A DNA stretch of 64,000 bases from IMG/VR virus record IMGVR_UViG_3300009082_000016, positions 108,724 through 172,723 of that record; one strand, written 5' to 3'. Positions 5,406 through 52,258 of this stretch are shown here, piece after piece. This stretch comes from a virus. The position numbers and the translations under genes were made by a program. A model generated the notes under the pieces. The model made no database searches and had not been told where the DNA came from. It was given only the letters and a program-made list of their open reading frames with translations. How positions within the stretch are numbered: the stretch's first letter is position 1; the number at the start of each line of letters is the position of its first letter.

Positions 5406-5978
5406 CTACCACTTCTTCCGGGGATCGGCCTTGAGGCCCGTCATCCCGAAGATTCCGTGGGCCTGCACCGTTTGCGGACACCAGCGGGTACTGCCCGGTG
5501 CCCCAATCGAATCGATCTGCTGGGTGTGGAGCACCCAATGCTGTTCCAGACGCTCGGCGGACACCGTAGTTCTGCATCGCACACAGCAACACGGCCGCAT
5601 CAAGGTAACCGGCGTCAACAGCTGATGCAACCCGGCGTTGTAGAACTCCTGACTGGAGTGCCGAAGTTCCTTGTCGATCCCGTCCGACAGGCCCTTTCTT
5701 GCCGCCGCCAACGACGCCTCCCCGTCGTCTCTCCCCCCCGTGCGAGCTCCGGAAGTCAGCCCACTTCTTCTTGCCGCCCAGACGGACAGCAGCTGCAGTC
5801 TTCCTACCGCTCGACGCGCAACGACGGCATAGCGACCAGCCCTGCTAAACCTGGTCGCCTCGCGACAGCACCACTCCACGGCCGACACGGACCCGTAAAC
5901 CGTTTCCACCATCGTGTCCGCCGACAGCTGCTGGGTCACCTGCACCAGTCCGTCCTCCCTGGCTTCCTCCGGAGTCAT
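5406..5978 (-). CDS. hypothetical protein
   Basis: ORF fills the gap; C-terminal Cys cluster. Confidence 0.4.
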   Translation of the reverse strand: MTPEEAREDGLVQVTQQLSADTMVETVYGSVSAVEWCCREATRFSRAGRYAVVARRAVGRLQLLSVWAARRSGLTSGARTGGRDDGEASLAAARKGLSDGIDKELRHSSQEFYNAGLHQLLTPVTLMRPCCCVRCRTTVSAERLEQHWVLHTQQIDSIGAPGSTRWCPQTVQAHGIFGMTGLKADPRKKW

Positions 5979-5982
5979 GCTC

Positions 5983-6345
5983 TCACCAGGGCTTCCCGGA
6001 GCGGCACACCTTCCTTCTATCCCACGGGCGCATGCCGGGCAAGAACTCGGCCCAGGCCACCCGCGGCGGCGCCACGTGCTTCATGTCGAATGGCGCCTTG
6101 CCGATGCGCCGGTCGACCTGCCGCAGGATGCGGGCGATCGTCTCGCGGCTGACGCCCACCATCCGCGCCACCCGACTCGCCGTCAAGCCGAACATGTAGA
6201 CGGTGCGGAACACGAACTGCTCCCGCGGCGGCATCGAACAGAGCGCGGCGCAGAGCCCCACCTGGAACTCGAGGGGCATGTTCTGGACCCACGGGGCGAG
6301 GGAACCACGCCGGCCGCGCTGCTTGGCGCCAAACATGTTCGTCAT
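5983..6345 (-). CDS. sigma-70 region-4-like HTH protein
   Basis: ALCSMPPREQFVF...GLTASRVARMVGVSRETIARIL. Confidence 0.7.
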   Translation of the reverse strand: MTNMFGAKQRGRRGSLAPWVQNMPLEFQVGLCAALCSMPPREQFVFRTVYMFGLTASRVARMVGVSRETIARILRQVDRRIGKAPFDMKHVAPPRVAWAEFLPGMRPWDRRKVCRSGKPW

Positions 6346-6707
6346 CCTCCACCTGCCAGCTTCTTCCCCTCTTCGCAGTCGCAGAGGATGTCGTTGGAGA
6401 TGTGCCCCGTGTCGAGGCACTTCTCGCACTCCATGATCAGGAACTCCTTCCGGCCCCTCACGTCGGCGAGGTAGTCGGTGACCGCGTCCAGGAAGTTGGT
6501 CAGCCCCTCCATGCAGTCGTCATCGTCCTTGCTGAACTGGATCAGCTCCGGCCCCGGCGTCCCGTACTCCACGCCCCGGGCCATCTGGGCGCGGCGGAAC
6601 CGGCCCGATAGCTCCAGCAGGCAGAGCCGCTGCTTCTTCCAGAGCTCAGGGTCGAGCTTCTTGAGAATGTCCTCGATGGTCGCGAATCCAAGATCTCCAC
6701 AAGCCAT
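6342..6707 (-). CDS. hypothetical protein with C-terminal Zn knuckle
   Basis: AAAGGAG RBS; CEKCLDTG...CDC. Confidence 0.65.
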   Translation of the reverse strand: MACGDLGFATIEDILKKLDPELWKKQRLCLLELSGRFRRAQMARGVEYGTPGPELIQFSKDDDDCMEGLTNFLDAVTDYLADVRGRKEFLIMECEKCLDTGHISNDILCDCEEGKKLAGGG

Positions 6708-6725
6708 GTGCTTCTCCTTTCCTAT

Positions 6726-6871
6726 GGTGGCTTCCAGCAGGGACCGGCCGAAGCCGATCCCTGCGACCTGGTGGCGTCAGTCAGAGGCTAGTCCGATTCC
6801 TGTCGCAGCTAGCCGTAACGATCCAGGGCATGCCGGAGTCCCACGTCAGCGGGCCCCTGCTGGAAACCACC
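6726..6871 (-). ncRNA. putative guide-like structured RNA, unit C (third transcribed)
   Basis: 17-bp terminal stem 6726-6742/6855-6871 (one G.U on minus strand); conserved 5' hairpin; C(UUCG)G 3' hairpin; 73-nt pentamer-periodic core. Confidence 0.8.
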
Positions 6872-7018
6872 TTCTGGATCACAGGAGGGACCGGCCGAAG
6901 CCGATCCCGCATCCGAGACGCTAACCTTGCTAGCACGGCCACGCCTAAACGTGACTAGTGGAGCCCGTACCAGCCTTGCCGGAGTCCCACGTCAGCGGGC
7001 CCCTCCTGTGATCCAGAA
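6872..7018 (-). ncRNA. putative guide-like structured RNA, unit B
   Basis: Perfect 18-bp terminal stem 6872-6889/7001-7018; same conserved hairpins; 72-nt periodic core. Confidence 0.8.
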
Positions 7019-7169
7019 CGTCCCCTCCCCGAGGGACCGGCCGAGGTCTAAACCACGGTCGGTCCCGCGGGCTTGCCGGAACTAGGCGGGCCACACCTGC
7101 CCTTGCCTTGTTGAGGCCTTCCCCGAGATGCCGGAGTCCCGCATCAGCGGGCCCCTCGGGGAGGGGACG
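7019..7169 (-). ncRNA. putative guide-like structured RNA, unit A (first transcribed)
   Basis: Perfect 17-bp terminal stem 7019-7035/7153-7169; conserved 5' hairpin; longer 3' hairpin; 66-nt periodic core; starts 5 nt after the upstream stop codon. Confidence 0.8.
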
Positions 7170-7174
7170 TCGAT

Positions 7175-7807
7175 CTACGCGGCCTCTTCCAGGATCCTGT
7201 TGAGCCGGTTCCGGATCCGCGTGAGCGCGGTGCGAAGCACGGGCAGCACCGTTCCCAGGAGCTCGGCCGCCCTGCGGTTGTTCTCGTACTTGTTGAGCAG
7301 GCCCTCGATGTCGTCGATGATCTCCCGGAGAAGGAGGGTGCCGGTGTTCCGCCTGCGGAGCCGTTCCACCGTGTGCTGGTAGGACTTCTTGCTCGTGGCC
7401 GAGGTCCGAACCGACACATTGCCGGTGACGACAATCTGGACCTTCTTGATCTTCACGACCCAGGCATAGCCCCGGGCCATGAGCCGCGCTTCCTGCTTCC
7501 ACTGCTTCTCGGCCGCCTCGCTCCGGTTGGCCGTGAAGCCGACGGAGAGGTTCTCCTTCACCCACGCGGGGACGGGCTCACCATCGAATCGGCCGTCGCG
7601 CCAGGCCGCCACGATGTGGTCGGTCTCGACGGATCCGTTCGCCTGGGTGTTCAACCAGTCGATCGCCCTTCCGTAGAGCATAGCCTGCGCGTCGGTGTAC
7701 ACCGGCGTCCGTGACTGGTAACCGACGAGCGTCGCCCCTTCCGGCAGCTGGCCCGGCTGAACGACGTCCTCCTCGTAGCTGATGATCTCCTTCTTCTCCT
7801 GGGCCAT
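7175..7807 (-). CDS. partner protein of the RAMP-like gene
   Basis: TGATG-coupled to the RAMP-like gene; helical motif VETDHIVAAWRD...SEAAEKQWKQEARLMAR. Confidence 0.7.
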   Translation of the reverse strand: MAQEKKEIISYEEDVVQPGQLPEGATLVGYQSRTPVYTDAQAMLYGRAIDWLNTQANGSVETDHIVAAWRDGRFDGEPVPAWVKENLSVGFTANRSEAAEKQWKQEARLMARGYAWVVKIKKVQIVVTGNVSVRTSATSKKSYQHTVERLRRRNTGTLLLREIIDDIEGLLNKYENNRRAAELLGTVLPVLRTALTRIRNRLNRILEEAA

Positions 7808-8475
7808 CAGCCTTCCTTCACCAGGCGCTTCGCTCCGGCGATCGTGAAAACGCCGTTGGCCTCGTGGCATCCCCGTCCCGGGCGCCCCTGACCCAACCCG
7901 ATGAACTGGCCGGCATGCTGCACGATGCTCGCCAGGAGATCGAGGCTGACGACGTCCGGCTTGTGGATGACCGTCACCCTCGTGTACCACGGCGGATTGA
8001 AGTGTGGACGGTACACGGTGGCGGGGAAGTGGGTGCGCGTCTCCTCCTTCTTGTCCTTGTTCCCACGGAACACGATGTCCTTGCTGCACATCTCGATGTC
8101 CTCACAGATGATCGGGTACACCCCACTCGGCACGCGAAACAGCCGGATGTTCTCGGCCGGAAGGTGGAGGATCTCCGTCGCCGCCTGGACGAAGCATCCA
8201 TGGAACGCACCCGAAGGGATCCCGAACGGGTGCTTCTTGTCCCCCGTCAGATGCAGGCAGCCCTTCGCCTCATCCTTCGGGTCCAGCTTGGCCGGCTTGG
8301 GAGGGTAGGGCTCTCCCTTGCCGCGCTCGCTCATCGCACGCATGAAATCGGCCAGGGCTGCCCGCGGCTTCCCCGGAATGAAAGGGGCCTCTCCCACGAG
8401 ATCGAAGGCGGTATACCAGAGCTCGAGGGGCTTCAACTTGATCTCCACCTCTTCGGCCTGCATCTTCTTCGTCAT
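7807..8475 (-). CDS. stand-alone Cas7/RAMP-like protein
   Basis: N-terminal FDLVGEAPFI strand; FGIPSGAFHGCF (RAMP IPxSxxKG-like); YRPHF-x3-W; C-terminal Gly-rich loop GQFIGLGQGRPG...NGVFTI. Confidence 0.8.
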   Translation of the reverse strand: MTKKMQAEEVEIKLKPLELWYTAFDLVGEAPFIPGKPRAALADFMRAMSERGKGEPYPPKPAKLDPKDEAKGCLHLTGDKKHPFGIPSGAFHGCFVQAATEILHLPAENIRLFRVPSGVYPIICEDIEMCSKDIVFRGNKDKKEETRTHFPATVYRPHFNPPWYTRVTVIHKPDVVSLDLLASIVQHAGQFIGLGQGRPGRGCHEANGVFTIAGAKRLVKEG

Positions 8476-8483
8476 GTCCTCTC

Positions 8484-8768
8484 CTAGTCTTCGAGGTTGG
8501 CGATCCAGACGAGGCCATCCTCGAAGTGCTGCTCCCTCGCGATGCGGCAGATCTCCTGCCACACATCCTCGGGAATGCTGTCACGGTCCGACCCCTCTTC
8601 GTGGTCGAACGTAATGAACACGTCGCTGTACTCGCCTGGGACTTCGCCCTTCCGGTGCCACGTCGCGATCGGCTTGCCGGAGTTGAGCCAGTCCATGAAG
8701 TCCTTGCGCTGGTACCACTCGGAGGCGTCGATGCGGAGCACCCGCCCGACATACTTGAACACGGCCAT
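8484..8768 (-). CDS. hypothetical protein
   Basis: TGATG coupling; ATWH-x5-PGEYSDVF motif. Confidence 0.65.
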   Translation of the reverse strand: MAVFKYVGRVLRIDASEWYQRKDFMDWLNSGKPIATWHRKGEVPGEYSDVFITFDHEEGSDRDSIPEDVWQEICRIAREQHFEDGLVWIANLED

Positions 8769-8986
8769 CAGCGATCCTTCCCGTAGTACTCGAGGCACTC
8801 CTTGCACCGCAGGAACCCGGCATCGTCATCCTCCGGGTCGCCCTCGAGCACCGCGCCTCCCTGATCGATCTGGAAGGCACCGCAGACCGTGTCCTGGTCG
8901 TTGGACCCCTCGAACTCGCAGTCCTTGCCGCCGGCGCCGCAGTGCTTCCCCTCGAACCGGATGGTCCGCTTGGTCTCAATCTCCAT
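8768..8986 (-). CDS. small Cys-rich protein
   Basis: HC..C..C..RCKEC pattern; GAGGAGG RBS. Confidence 0.6.
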   Translation of the reverse strand: MEIETKRTIRFEGKHCGAGGKDCEFEGSNDQDTVCGAFQIDQGGAVLEGDPEDDDAGFLRCKECLEYYGKDR

Positions 8987-9354
8987 TAGCCCTCCTCATG
9001 CCACACCACCTTGATGCGGTATGTGGTCCCCTCAGGGGTCTCTGCCTCCAGGAAGGAAGGCCACCCATCGAGGGGCACGGACTCGAAAATGAGCCGGCCG
9101 TCCAAGCTGATCTCGAAGGAGCCCCAGTAGTTGTGCTGACCCGAGCAGAGTTTGACGGACACGAAGGCCCCATCGTCCAACCTGACCGCCGGAGCCTCCC
9201 GGGTATCATCGTAGTACGCCCGGGTGCTCCCGTCCCTGGGGGCCGGACCCTTCCGCACCCCCTTCAGGTTCTCCGGGAACACGATGTCGATCAGCTTCTT
9301 CCAGGAACTCGGCAGGACAATCTCACCCCGAACGGGCTGGGTCTTCTTGCCCAT
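8986..9354 (-). CDS. hypothetical protein
   Basis: Coupled ORF with GGAGG RBS. Confidence 0.65.
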   Translation of the reverse strand: MGKKTQPVRGEIVLPSSWKKLIDIVFPENLKGVRKGPAPRDGSTRAYYDDTREAPAVRLDDGAFVSVKLCSGQHNYWGSFEISLDGRLIFESVPLDGWPSFLEAETPEGTTYRIKVVWHEEG

Positions 9355-30947: not shown

Positions 30948-32587
30948 GCCTCTGCCACTCCTCCGCCGCCGCCCAGGTCCATCAACCGACCGACCTGTTC
31001 GTACGACGTCGCCCCGTCCTGGGGGCCCTGGTACAGACCGGGATACGACGCCGAGCACCAGCAGCCCTTGGCCGCCGCACGCATCGCGTCGATCTCCATC
31101 ATGCGGGAAATGCCCGTGGGCACCATGCCCATCGCGGCCGCATCGACCAGCGTGAGACCGCGGTCCTGCGCCTTGCGGCAGCAGTTGCGGATGTCCGCCC
31201 CGCTCCAGCGGGTATCCTCCGGCAACGGCTGCGGGGCCAGCCCGTGCGCCTGCATCTGCTTCTGCCAGATGACGGCCTTCTCCTCGGCCGACGGCAGGTC
31301 GACGTAGTACTTGCCCTCGGAGCTGAACCGGCGGTCCATCTCCGCGGGAATGTTTGCCTCGCGGTTGCTGTCGCCGATGAACACCGGGTCGTCGCCGATC
31401 GCGGCGAGAATCTTCATCACCATGGCGGACCGCTCTTCGGACACGCCGACGAAGCGGTTCATCATGCCGCCGACGCGGACGACCAGGAACAGCACGCCCA
31501 GCTTGTTGCCCAGGGCGCGGATGATGTGCGTCTTGCCGGTGCCGGGCGGGCCCTGCAGCCGGTAGCCGCGCACCTTCTTGTTCTCCATGAGCTCGAGCAG
31601 GTCGGCGATGATGTGGTCCGTGATGCCGGTGTTGTCGCCGCCGCCGGCGCCCATCATCTGCTTGTCGATCTCGGGGAACTGGGCGATGTAACCGACCCGG
31701 CGCTTCGACTTCCCGAGCGAGTCGAACTCGGCGATCAGCTGGGTGATACCGCCCAGGTCGGAGATCAGTTCCTTGCCGTCGCGGTAGACCTCGATGCCCG
31801 CGGCCTCCTTGATCCACTGGATCTTGCGGACCCAGAGGCGGCCGATCTCGATGCCCGTCGGCGTGAGCGCCATGGCGACCACCTGGTCGATGATCTTCCC
31901 GGGCAGGGCGCGGCACGCGTTCACGGCGTGCCACATCTGGTCATCGGTCAGCTCCGGCGCCGCCGGCTTGCCGGCCTTCTTGAGCCCGTACTGCAGGTCG
32001 TTGAACCGGTCCTGGATGATGCCCTTGATCTCCTCCGGACCGGGCAGCGGCTCATCAATCACCGAGATCTCGTTGACCTCGGGAGGGAAGGCCGGGAACA
32101 CCGGCGAGAGCAGCACGACGCTGCACCCCTGCGCCTTCAGCTGGCTGCTGATCAGCTGCAGGGCCTGCACGGTGTCGTTCGCGGCGTTCGGCTGCTCGAC
32201 GCCCAGCTGCCGGTGCATGTTGAGCATGAACAGGACGCCGCGCTTCGGCAGCTTCAACGCCCCGAACAGGGCGGAAACAGGGTTCACGAACTGGACCGGG
32301 TCGGGGAAGATCTTCTTCACCGCCTGCGACCAGGCGCCGTTGTGCTTCGCGAGATCCGGCTCTGCGGAAACGAAAGCGGTCACGCCGCGCAGGGAGTCCC
32401 ACACGGCGATGGGGGTGTCGGCGCTGACGCCCGACTTCGCCGGGAGTCCGGCGCGGAACTCCAGGAGCTTCCGCACGACCTTGTCCTGGGTCGTGAACGG
32501 ACAGGGGCACGACACCGCGATGACCGGCGTCGAAACGGCGTGGGCCCGCACGACCTCGGCGCCCACGTCGAGAACCGTCGTGTTCAC
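30944..32587 (-). CDS. Ycf46-like AAA+ ATPase with permuted motif order
   Basis: DLGG; GPPGTGKT; FVGVSE; PAEMDRRF; VDLP; WSGADIRNCC. Confidence 0.85.
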   Translation of the reverse strand: MNTTVLDVGAEVVRAHAVSTPVIAVSCPCPFTTQDKVVRKLLEFRAGLPAKSGVSADTPIAVWDSLRGVTAFVSAEPDLAKHNGAWSQAVKKIFPDPVQFVNPVSALFGALKLPKRGVLFMLNMHRQLGVEQPNAANDTVQALQLISSQLKAQGCSVVLLSPVFPAFPPEVNEISVIDEPLPGPEEIKGIIQDRFNDLQYGLKKAGKPAAPELTDDQMWHAVNACRALPGKIIDQVVAMALTPTGIEIGRLWVRKIQWIKEAAGIEVYRDGKELISDLGGITQLIAEFDSLGKSKRRVGYIAQFPEIDKQMMGAGGGDNTGITDHIIADLLELMENKKVRGYRLQGPPGTGKTHIIRALGNKLGVLFLVVRVGGMMNRFVGVSEERSAMVMKILAAIGDDPVFIGDSNREANIPAEMDRRFSSEGKYYVDLPSAEEKAVIWQKQMQAHGLAPQPLPEDTRWSGADIRNCCRKAQDRGLTLVDAAAMGMVPTGISRMMEIDAMRAAAKGCWCSASYPGLYQGPQDGATSYEQVGRLMDLGGGGGVAEA

Positions 32588-49945: not shown

Positions 49946-50015
49946 GAGCAGGAGCTTACCAGCAGCCCAGAAAGATGACTAGGGGGGAGGTACGGCTAGC
50001 AGAGGGACGGCTGGA

Positions 50016-52196
50016 CTAGAAGCGACCGATCACGGCCTCCAAGGTGGAGCCGGTGGTGGGCGTGAAGTCGAACTTCACCGTGTCGGCAGCGTCGTTCATG
50101 TAGTACGTGCCCTGTCCACCACCAGTGCTGGCCGTCCGGAGCAGGCGCTGACCGTTGTAGTAGATGGCCAAGGACCCGCTGAACAGGGAGTCGTAGCCGA
50201 TCTGGGCCGGAACCACGTCGAGGTCCCACGTCACGGTGGCCGCGGGCCAGCTGGTCACCGACACCTCCTCGAACTTCGTGATGTTGACGGACCACACCTC
50301 GGTGTCCGCCTTGTACGTGTACTGGGCGCCGTTGCCCCAGAACACGTTCACCAGCGTGAGAGCGCCGAAGGACGCGCTGACGGTGATCTGGTCCCCGTCG
50401 TCCGGCTGCTGGAAGCTCCAGTTGGTTCCGTCGTACCACCCGATCTCCTTCGCATGGCCGGAGAAGGTCCCGAGAGCCGTGGGGGCGATCATGGCCCGGA
50501 GACCGGTCGGGGGCTTGCCCGCTCCGGCCGTGCTGTACAGCTTCGTCCACGTTCCGCCCCCGATGGACCGGTACTGGTAGACGTCCCCGTCGGTGTAGCT
50601 GCCACCCCAGTTGTCGACGATGTAGCAGTAGCCGTTGAGGGGGTTCGACGGGACGCTGCCACCCTGATCGGCGTCCGTGGTCAGCAGAACGATGTGAACC
50701 GGCGGGTGCCACGGGAACGTCTCGTCGACGTTCACGCCGGCGGCGTTCACCTTGATGTAGTTGCCCGGCTTGACCTCCAGCGACGTACCGTCGATGGTGA
50801 GGCCGTCGGCGTACTTCACGTACACGCCGTTCGAGTCGATCTCGAGGCCGCCCTCGTTCTTCACGAGGACCTTGAGTCCGGCGTACGCCCCGGACACCTC
50901 GGCGATCTCCAAGCCACCATCGGTCTGCAGGAGGGGGGAGGCGGTCCACGTCGCGCCGGCGTAGACGTACTCGATCCCCGTACCGTACGAGGACGAGATG
51001 ATGACCCCATCGCCCGACGACGGCACGACCGCGATCCAGTAGCTCGGGTCGTTGGTGTTGCTCGTGGTGACGGTCATGATCTGCTTCTGGTACGGAGCGA
51101 ACTCGTCGGCGGCGTTCGGGTGGACCACGAAACGGGTCCCATAGGCCGCGTAGCCACCGCTGCCCGGCACCAGCACGGACCAAGTGGTCCCCGTCCAGAT
51201 GACGAAGTCCCCGGCGTTGACCGCCACACCGCCCCACGTACCGTTGGCCGTGGCGAGGTAGGTGACTCCCGTCACGGGGGTACCCGGCGCCGTGGCCACG
51301 GCGTCGTAGACACGCATCGCCGAGACGGGCTGCTTCGACCGGTTGTAGACGCCGGCCGCATTGACACCGATGCCGGAACCTTCGAGGGTGTCGACGGTCA
51401 CGCCGGTGTTCGCCACCACGATGCCGTCCCCGGCCAGCACCATGAGAGGGCCAGTCTCCAGGGCGTGGTCGTTGAACTTGAGGCCGGGGTACCCGTACGT
51501 TCCGGTCGCCAGCTTGATCCCGATGCCGCCCACCGTGACCTGAATGCCGTACGCGGTGTTGGGCTCCGCGGAGATCTCGGACCCCGTGATGTCGATGCCG
51601 TCCCCCGCCGTGTAGATGCCGACGCCGGCGAACTGGATCCACTTGGTCGTATCGTCGTAGACGTACGCCCTGTTCTCGTACCAGCCCCCGTCGCCGTTGA
51701 TGAGAACGGCATCGCCGTCTTTGACATCGGTGATGAAGACCCAAGCGTTGGTACTGGCGTTGTAGACGGCGAAGTCGTTGGCGTAGGAGGCGAAGCTCCC
51801 GGCGGGGAAGGCACTGACGAGCACCCGAGTGCCGTTCGGCGGCTCTCCACCGGAGTTCGACACGATGACCTGCCACGCAGTCCCCTGCCACTCGATGATG
51901 TCCCCGTCGTTGTAGCCGACACCCCAGTTGTCGACGACGTAGGCCTCCCCGGATCCTCCGGGCGTGGGCGGACTTCCCCCACCGTCGGTGTCATCCACCA
52001 TGTTGAAGACCTTGACGGGCTCCTTCCACGTCACGCCGTACGCCGCGATGTCATCGACGTACTTCTTGTGGACGATGTCCGTCTCGTTGGAGAGGGAATG
52101 GGCCGCCGTGTACCCGATGACCGCATCGAGCTCCGCGATCTTCGCGGAGGTTACGGCCGCGTCGGCGAGTTGGTGTGTTCGGATCTGTACGGACAT
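50016..52196 (-). CDS. fibre-like protein with three DUF2793-like repeats
   Basis: Repeats of YxVDNWG...GD...W.GT.W...G.F....W.F; KKYVDD. Confidence 0.6.
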   Translation of the reverse strand: MSVQIRTHQLADAAVTSAKIAELDAVIGYTAAHSLSNETDIVHKKYVDDIAAYGVTWKEPVKVFNMVDDTDGGGSPPTPGGSGEAYVVDNWGVGYNDGDIIEWQGTAWQVIVSNSGGEPPNGTRVLVSAFPAGSFASYANDFAVYNASTNAWVFITDVKDGDAVLINGDGGWYENRAYVYDDTTKWIQFAGVGIYTAGDGIDITGSEISAEPNTAYGIQVTVGGIGIKLATGTYGYPGLKFNDHALETGPLMVLAGDGIVVANTGVTVDTLEGSGIGVNAAGVYNRSKQPVSAMRVYDAVATAPGTPVTGVTYLATANGTWGGVAVNAGDFVIWTGTTWSVLVPGSGGYAAYGTRFVVHPNAADEFAPYQKQIMTVTTSNTNDPSYWIAVVPSSGDGVIISSSYGTGIEYVYAGATWTASPLLQTDGGLEIAEVSGAYAGLKVLVKNEGGLEIDSNGVYVKYADGLTIDGTSLEVKPGNYIKVNAAGVNVDETFPWHPPVHIVLLTTDADQGGSVPSNPLNGYCYIVDNWGGSYTDGDVYQYRSIGGGTWTKLYSTAGAGKPPTGLRAMIAPTALGTFSGHAKEIGWYDGTNWSFQQPDDGDQITVSASFGALTLVNVFWGNGAQYTYKADTEVWSVNITKFEEVSVTSWPAATVTWDLDVVPAQIGYDSLFSGSLAIYYNGQRLLRTASTGGGQGTYYMNDAADTVKFDFTPTTGSTLEAVIGRF

Positions 52197-52258
52197 GGCG
52201 GAGAACCTCCTGGCCCCCTAGATGCCACAAGTCTACTACGAGATTTCAGAGTTGGGAA

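Follow-up and report, generated by a model that had tools for sequence, protein, structure and literature searches.

A probable and highly divergent VIPR locus with three stem-closed guide RNA units in a large phage genome

The DNA analysed here (the window, 64,000 nucleotides) forms the final 64 kb of a phage record of 172,723 bp in IMG/VR (IMGVR_UViG_3300009082_000016, positions 108,724 to 172,723), which carries direct terminal repeats, is rated complete and has a G+C content of 65%. Positions 6724-7172 of the window hold three abutting units of 155, 149 and 150 nt on the minus strand. GC3 frame analysis found no coding signal in this interval and clear minus-strand genes on either side of it. 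Along the minus strand, the locus consists of vipr, a coupled second gene and the three units, named here after VIPR (Viral Interference Programmable Repeat), the RNA-guided DNA silencing of phages that was described in preprints of 2026 (bioRxiv 10.64898/2026.04.26.720920, 10.64898/2026.04.26.720927, 10.64898/2026.10.15.759431). The vipr gene (P0003, 7810-8475, minus strand; 222 aa, counted from the first accepted start codon) has high GC3 in frame, homologues, a profile match and an AF2 model that supports its assignment. Its stop codon is overlapped by the ATG of the second gene (P0004, 7178-7807, minus strand, 210 aa), a candidate vap (vipr-accessory) gene that is named so by position only. 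Neither protein finds a match in Pfam or PADLOC. P0004 also has no PHROG or PDB match and no recognisable DNA-binding or nuclease domain, a word-based search for its homologues returned P0004 itself only, and its AF2 model (pLDDT 47) is not good enough for fold searching. Among the neighbours examined, none was recognised as a cas gene. With vipr, one accessory gene and neither cas genes nor a CRISPR array, in a viral genome, the locus has the minimal layout of a VIPR locus.

The surroundings of the array were also searched. A scan for consensus promoters and terminators over positions 6200-9200 found nothing. Directly after the array, in the same orientation and with no terminator between, positions 5983-6707 (minus strand) encode two proteins, one of 121 aa that contains CxxC pairs and one of 148 aa that contains a sigma-70 region 4 helix-turn-helix; these genes may be co-transcribed with the VIPR operon. 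The constant elements of the units occur only three times in the whole genome, and no further vrRNA units were seen. Relatives of the array were sought with its exact DNA pattern among viral contigs (no match), with the flanking proteins as queries (no related loci), by blastn of the array against phage records and by tblastn with a 733-aa protein encoded at 50019-52217, the last two of which returned nothing.

Each unit contains a variable core, which we read on the minus strand from a constant ACTCC anchor. The preliminary description had divided these cores into pentamers, and its lists for units A, B and C are correct on re-reading. Position 1 is G in 11/13, 10/12 and 9/9 pentamers of the three units, or 30/34 in total, and position 3, said to be mostly C or T, is a pyrimidine in 27 of the 34 clear pentamers. 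The third pentamer has the form GxA in every unit (GGA in A, GTA in B and GGA in C), and the phase decays in unit C after nine pentamers. Positions 4 and 5 are free and richer in A/T, with 39% and 54% G+C compared with 65% in the genome. Position 2 is G in 17/34 clear pentamers, and the consensus is G-(G)-Y-N-N, a degenerate form of GGY/NN. The periodicity test that the same description had called for leaves little room for chance. Over the full spans given there, the base-by-phase chi-square is 68, compared with 12.5 +/- 5.0 in dinucleotide-preserving shuffles (z = 11), and 0/5000 shuffles score as high; the G counts by phase are 32/44, 22/43, 4/42, 4/41 and 10/41. Only periods 5 and 10 stand out, with periods 2-4, 6-9, 11 and 12 being flat. 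Taken singly and corrected for the best phase, the units reach a significance at which 1/20000, 1/20000 and 13/20000 shuffles attain the observed value. The 13, 12 and 9 tandem pentamers lie within the 9-16 expected of a vrRNA, with a conserved GGY-related triplet and hypervariable NN, and with G2 weaker than in the canonical form.

At the scale of the genome, a scan for GGY places units A and B at the top score (21/27), where they tie with one unrelated site, and it shows no periodic tract upstream of vipr. Scanning for G at a single phase lacks specificity, and single units are not unique in such a scan. The other 21/27 site lies outside the window, at genome positions 51700-52000 (minus strand). 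About 100 nt upstream of it is a loose likeness to the 5' hairpin of the units (CCCGCTGAC...GGACTC), with neither an in-phase tract after it nor a tail. Within the window, an intergenic stretch at 49975-50012 (plus strand) shares TACGGCTAGC and GGACTAG with the core of unit C at near-equal spacing; it has no constant hairpins, and the likeness may be due to chance.

The three units are also highly structured. Unit A (7018-7172, minus strand) has a minimum free energy (MFE) of -100 kcal/mol (z -5.8), unit B (6872-7020, minus strand) of -88 kcal/mol (z -6.7) and unit C (6724-6873, minus strand) of -84 kcal/mol (z -5.3), so that all three fold 5-7 sd better than shuffles. They share one plan, in which a closing stem arm is followed by a constant 5' hairpin, the variable core, a constant 3' hairpin and the other stem arm. 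In unit A, the stem arms (7170-7156 and 7032-7018) enclose the 5' hairpin (7155-7133), 13 pentamers (7132-7068) and the tail hairpin (7066-7033). In unit B, the arms are located at 7018-7004 and 6886-6872, the 5' hairpin at 7003-6981, the 12 pentamers at 6980-6921, a linker at 6920-6909 and the tail hairpin at 6908-6887. In unit C, the arms at 6871-6858 and 6739-6726 enclose the 5' hairpin (6857-6835), nine clear pentamers (6834-6790), an out-of-phase segment (6789-6762) and the tail hairpin (6761-6740). The 5' hairpin reads GGGG-CCCGC-UGAY-GYGGG-A-CUCC and the 3' hairpin GGGAUCGGC-UUCG-GCCGGUCCC. The tail, GGGAUCGGCUUCGGCCGGUCCC, is identical in units B and C, and unit A carries a longer variant with the same hairpin. 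A constant structured 3' tail is thus present, as a hairpin rather than as the pseudoknot of the SUSP1 clade.

The closing stem, of 14-15 bp, differs in sequence from unit to unit, and its pairing is supported by covariation. In an alignment of the three units, 13 pairs are 100% paired and 10 of the 13 have changed on both sides, whereas the pairing drops to 36-52% when the partner is slid by one to three columns. The G-U pairs are compatible with the minus strand only. Part of each core falls in hairpins in the predicted folds. An Rfam scan of 5500-8500 returned no family, and no hammerhead or other ribozyme, even at E <= 10, and the Rfam, tRNA and tmRNA scans found nothing in or near the array. 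The motifs CUGAUG and CUGACG had suggested a hammerhead; they have no Rfam match, CUGAYG is accounted for as the tetraloop with its closing pair, and there is no GAAA core. A retron, a type III toxin-antitoxin RNA, an integron attC site and a Y RNA were considered before the protein result was obtained and were then dropped.

What is published on VIPR gives these features a context. According to the main texts of the preprints, Vipr is a minimal RAMP protein found mostly in phages and usually encoded beside one accessory gene (vap), and vrRNAs consist of 9-16 YNNGG repeats and a constant structured tail (bioRxiv 10.64898/2026.04.26.720920, 10.64898/2026.04.26.720927). One Vipr protomer occupies each repeat, and the protein holds G1, G2 and Y3 in a flipped-out state; pairing with dsDNA falls to N4 and N5, in an R-loop triplex that skips every third base, and binding silences transcription (bioRxiv 10.64898/2026.04.26.720920, 10.64898/2026.04.26.720927). 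The natural targets reported there are satellites, prophages and rival phages, with no self-targets; they match at least 80% of the NN positions and are usually coding, with the skipped base at the wobble position. The same texts distinguish seven VIPR types, in which arrays are staggered, interspersed with hammerhead ribozymes or single. Handles can be degenerate, with NNNGG, YNNNG and NNNNG as alternative consensuses, and structured RNA may stand between the units and set them free (bioRxiv 10.64898/2026.04.26.720920, 10.64898/2026.04.26.720927). The CRISPR RAMP effectors have been proposed to descend from VIPR (2026 preprints).

The protein encoded by P0003 belongs to the Vipr family, as shown by its family profile. 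In a word-based protein search, P0003 finds only itself. An exhaustive HMMER search of 1.8 billion representatives yielded 55 distant full-length homologues at E<=1e-3, which are ~200 aa long and 24-35% identical to P0003 (best E 3.5e-10); no protein among the 1.8 billion is more than 35% identical to it. All 43 of the 43 aligned family members match phrog_4652, a family of unknown function. The profile built from the 43-member alignment matches one solved structure, the Vipr of Escherichia phage SUSP1 (PDB 36pp_D; E 6e-17, residues 2-188). The P0003 sequence alone gives no match to SUSP1 Vipr, and the link goes through the family profile. The AF2 model of P0003 (pLDDT 91) is a RAMP, in which a thumb hairpin and a G-loop (GLGQGRPGRG) can be made out, and its best Foldseek matches are the Cas7-family proteins Csm3 and Cmr4 (E about 1e-6, probability 1.0). 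P0003 thus has the features of a Vipr, namely a minimal single-RRM RAMP with a thumb, a glycine-rich loop and, via the family profile, homology to the published protein.

The residues that read the handle are only partly kept. In SUSP1 Vipr, G1 is read by H17 and D177, G2 by R138 and W178, which stacks on it, and Y3 by R179 (bioRxiv 10.64898/2026.04.26.720920, 10.64898/2026.04.26.720927). P0003 keeps the thumb Arg (R156, equivalent to SUSP1 R138) and the G-loop Arg (R198, equivalent to SUSP1 R179). The equivalents of H17, D177 and W178 are G35, Q196 and G197, so the full SUSP1 set is not present. These columns vary across the family, with H in 18/43 members and W in 21/43. Therefore, the SUSP1 residues define the SUSP1 clade and not the family. 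The loss of W178 and the relaxed G2 correlate in P0003, which is suggestive only, because the homologue P0006 also lacks the Trp and yet has a canonical GGY/NN tract, which starts a few bases after its stop codon. At that locus (L004:1796-1993), P0006 is followed by ~40 uninterrupted canonical GGY/NN pentamers with a recurring GGTCTGGCAGGT start, and the array seems to be continuous or staggered and to have no structured spacers. Another homologue, P0007 (259 aa; L005-L007), lies beside a convergent HNH endonuclease gene, and a gene for a YqaJ exonuclease is close by. At the threshold used, the P0007 locus showed no strong GGY tract; it is possibly a nuclease-associated VIPR type.

Targets were sought by converting each core to an NN-x pattern and scanning outside databases with the published 1-nt skip. 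In the phage's own genome, the best sites under the same skip match 64-69% of the NN positions, which equals the result for guides with shuffled NN order. Since the matches are no better than those of shuffled guides, the phage holds no self-target. With a 16-base seed of guide A (NN 3-10), two homologous viral contigs were found, and both matches extend to 23/26 (88%). The site lies inside a gene for a 517-aa AAA-ATPase, on the opposite strand. Every skipped base is the third position of a codon (peptide RRFSYGTWFFDLPN), and the contigs show two synonymous differences from each other, each at a skipped base. Read back into protein, guide A gives R-F-G-Y-G-T-W-F-F-D-L-P-(I/M), with the mismatches at two residues, those at which the family varies. 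The set was extended with a longer seed (NN 2-10). In metagenome contigs, at least 13 of 22 matches fall in the AAA-ATPase family, with the motif RRF[S/T/K]YGTWFFDLP[T/N], scores of 22-23/26 and 46-59% G+C; in species genomes, two of five matches do, both from Nitrospira MAGs. On a Nitrospira MAG contig (L065:1-8000), the AAA-ATPase of the targeted family lies beside a DnaG-like primase, a Gp49/HigB-like gene and TnpB. These neighbours indicate an integrated mobile element, and the cluster looks like a small integrated element or satellite.

Several observations bear on how much weight the guide A match can carry. Shuffled guides reach at most 21/26 on the 16 AAA-ATPase loci in 1000 trials. 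The best match of guide A is 23/26, with none perfect, and the target contigs have 45-59% G+C versus 65% for the phage. The metagenome scan also returned an unrelated 23/26 match, in an antiporter gene and out of codon register, indicating that a database of this size can yield such a score by chance. On balance, we consider it likely that the AAA-ATPase family is the true target class of guide A. The phage has an AAA-ATPase gene of its own outside the VIPR system (31028-32572, minus strand; phrog_8638 and AAA match), whose product is 31% identical to the targeted one (tblastn, E 1e-57). Its site reads RRFSSEGKYYVDLPS, and guide A matches it at 13/26 positions only. This gene is followed by DUF1257, DUF2997 and radical-SAM genes. 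A 4.74-Mb NCBI contig (GCA_041320475.1) encodes an identical AAA-ATPase protein; through integration or through assembly, the phage may thus form part of a bacterial genome, which could reveal its host.

Guides B and C gave a different picture. Their seeds (NN3-10 and NN5-12 for B, NN1-8 and NN2-9 for C) produced non-extending matches only, at 16-20/24 and 16-17/18, respectively; the first seed scans had returned four stretches for B and two stretches, of one sequence, for C, none of them extending. These matches provide an empirical background, in which 7/10 extra positions are expected by chance at ~0.0035 per seed. They contain stops or are out of codon register, and they lie in unrelated genes with no homologue in the phage. 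One guide C match, in a gene for a Mu-F-like head protein, is in codon register and, with 18 informative bases, is not interpretable. At <=3 mismatches, guides B and C are absent from both viral records in which the guide A site occurs (only 15-17% complete), and they are absent from all the AAA-ATPase target-family loci retrieved. The search with the dinucleotide strings and a 1-nt gap that the preliminary description had proposed gave a candidate target for guide A, at 23/26 in the AAA-ATPase family, and left B and C without a convincing target.

The locus also varies in nature. Runs from seven studies, of sediment, soil, wetland and wastewater, contain the stretch. An allele from a soil metagenome has six differences, all in unit A, and none in the other ~750 nt of its contig. 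A second contig from the same soil run (X2) carries the reference form of unit A, and both alleles appear to coexist in this metagenome. Two of the six changes fall at pentamer position 2 and none at G1 or Y3, two alter NN (CA to AA in repeat 7 and CC to CT in repeat 11), and two form a compensatory change of a U-A to a C-G pair in the tail hairpin. Read back, the variant guide gives R-F-(S/R)-Y-G-T-(F/L)-F-F-D-L-P, in which the Ser is present at that place in several family members; judged from sequence, it is plausibly a variant of the guide A protein motif. Transcription is weakly indicated by contigs from wetland metatranscriptomes, which match segments of vipr and of the second gene at >=99% identity. 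The array is not covered by the RNA-library contigs, an absence that carries no weight in either direction. In one study, a pair of RNA contigs stops at 7159 and 7161, within the first closing stem. Contigs of DNA likewise have breaks near these positions, and thus no conclusion can be drawn from the RNA contig ends.

Taken together, it is very probable that the window carries a VIPR locus whose guides silence a competing mobile element. It is improbable that the system is VIPR and that its guides regulate genes of the host or of the phage itself, or serve some other purpose, with the AAA-ATPase match being a coincidence. The fact that one of three guides has a candidate target, at 23/26, would be compatible with this, as would the unrelated match of the same score, the difference in G+C between target contigs and phage, and the occurrence of the AAA-ATPase family in Nitrospira chromosomal contigs. 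However, the Nitrospira neighbours are mobile-element genes, and matches in the phage's own genome never exceed the shuffled controls. In addition, the AAA family was the sole family found in the first, smaller viral scan, its site is in codon register, the phage carries a diverged form of the gene, and satellites, prophages and rival phages are the natural targets given in the main texts of the preprints.

Explanations that involve no guiding are weaker still. The period of a triplet and a 2-nt spacer, within a stem-closed loop, would suit wrapping around an oligomer, and the units might accordingly be a sponge or scaffold for a TRAP-like ring or a helical RNA-binding protein. We consider this highly unlikely, given that the neighbouring protein is a Vipr-family RAMP and that the solved complex uses the same periodicity for guiding; furthermore, the NN positions are hypervariable between units and between alleles, and the match of one guide to a coding gene keeps the codon register. 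Hardly credible is a reading of the period as a by-product, be it a decayed pentanucleotide microsatellite, hairpin geometry or chance, with the units serving only as RNase-processing sites or terminators. Three units keep the same phase from the same anchor (z = 11), conservation falls precisely on G1 and Y3, with N4 and N5 being variable, the array has a Vipr homologue beside it, and no terminator-like site is present. These facts outweigh the placement of part of each core in hairpins by the predicted folds and the lack of uniqueness of single units in the genome-wide one-phase G scan.

The VIPR reading suggests how the locus might work. The vipr gene, the translationally coupled accessory gene and the three vrRNAs probably share one transcript. 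The closing stem, the constant 5' hairpin and the 3' tail hairpin form a three-way junction, which could insulate the folding of each unit and offer a double-stranded cutting site for freeing the units from the transcript. The SUSP1 repeat tract becomes an extended helical filament, and the stem ties the ends of the tract together; the stem must therefore be cut or melted. Since no ribozyme was found, and no promoter or terminator consensus inside the operon, we infer that a double-strand-specific host RNase makes the cut. By analogy to SUSP1, one Vipr protomer would then bind each pentamer, flipping out and sequestering G-(G)-Y and presenting the next two bases, and the 9-13 NN dinucleotides of each unit would pair with dsDNA in the resulting RNP, skipping every third target base. 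The preliminary description had taken the triplet for a per-subunit protein handle, a role that agrees with the published VIPR mechanism and with a Vipr-family RAMP gene near the array. Its proposal that the dinucleotides form a non-contiguous target code likewise anticipated what the published rule would predict here, and the candidate match of guide A, at >80% of its NN positions in a coding gene with wobble skips, would be compatible with this rule. Sequence-specific binding would result in transcriptional silencing of the competing mobile element, as in SUSP1. Guide A is most likely aimed at the AAA-ATPase gene of other phages or integrated elements, at the motif R-F-G-Y-G-T-W-F-F-D-L-P. 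Because the skipped bases are at codon wobble positions, synonymous drift would give the target no escape.

As a divergent member of its kind, the locus suggests that the chemistry of handle reading can change widely while the 5-nt code persists, and it allows the universality of the 1-nt-skip rule to be tested on a natural example. The stem-closed units may represent a different mode of packaging and releasing guides. The allele that differs in one guide, and the contrast between self and non-self at the ATPase motif, would directly record an arms race in which mobile elements of uncultured communities, in soil and sediment, are engaged with each other. It is also of value that the 5-nt code could be recognised from the raw sequence alone. 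More tentatively, and with more doubt than confidence, the locus might represent an undescribed VIPR type or sub-type, in which stem-closed vrRNAs are freed by a host double-strand RNase, a Vipr without the Asp and Trp reads G-N-Y, and a large high-G+C phage of nitrifier-type habitats acts against an AAA-ATPase/primase element.

Comparison with known systems places the locus among VIPR. The binding sites of TRAP (trp RNA-binding attenuation protein) consist of about 11 GAG/UAG triplets separated by 2-nt spacers, one per subunit. The arrangement of triplets, 2-nt spacers and one triplet per subunit is common to both, whereas TRAP belongs to an unrelated protein family, uses GAG/UAG triplets and does not guide nucleic acids. 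The Cas7 proteins of class 1 CRISPR systems (Csm3, Cmr4 and Cascade Cas7) resemble Vipr in the RAMP fold, the thumb and the G-loop, and in both cases a protomer sits on each segment of the guide and bases are flipped out periodically. The VIPR period is 5, with three guide bases displaced and a non-contiguous guide, unlike the CRISPR period of 6 with one base displaced. The present locus is not of the CRISPR kind, as its period is 5 and not 6 and its repeats are structured units of 146-152 nt with no repeat-spacer array.

Other VIPR arrays described in the main texts of the preprints can likewise have degenerate handles, and structured RNA that frees the units may lie between them. They differ in that the present array has no hammerhead and its units abut without being staggered, and the consensus found here, YNNG(G/N) in the published notation, is not among the alternatives NNNGG, YNNNG and NNNNG. 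Stem-closed units are not mentioned in these main texts. The closest counterpart, as far as it is described there, is the type II VIPR of Escherichia phage SUSP1 and a Pseudomonas fulva prophage. The differences from it are considerable. Here, the Vipr has no pairwise sequence match to SUSP1 Vipr and has G35, Q196 and G197 in place of H17, D177 and W178; G-(G)-Y serves as a relaxed handle; the SUSP1 pseudoknot is replaced in the tail by a simple UUCG-type hairpin; a constant 5' hairpin comes in addition, and a closing stem of 14-15 bp, different in each unit, makes a three-way junction; no upstream vrRNA was found and the second gene is an orphan; and the phage is large (173 kb), with 65% G+C, and comes from soil, sediment and wetland samples. 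In common with type II, the system is phage-encoded, with vipr, a second gene and three downstream vrRNAs. Both have a conserved triplet and a hypervariable dinucleotide in each pentamer (9-13 pentamers here), followed by a constant structured 3' element, and both keep the thumb Arg and the G-loop Arg (R156/R138 and R198/R179). Neither has a self-target, and the candidate match of guide A lies, like the natural match of type II, in a coding gene with the skips at wobble positions. VIPR having been published in 2026, the kind of system is not new, and the present locus is a highly divergent example of it.
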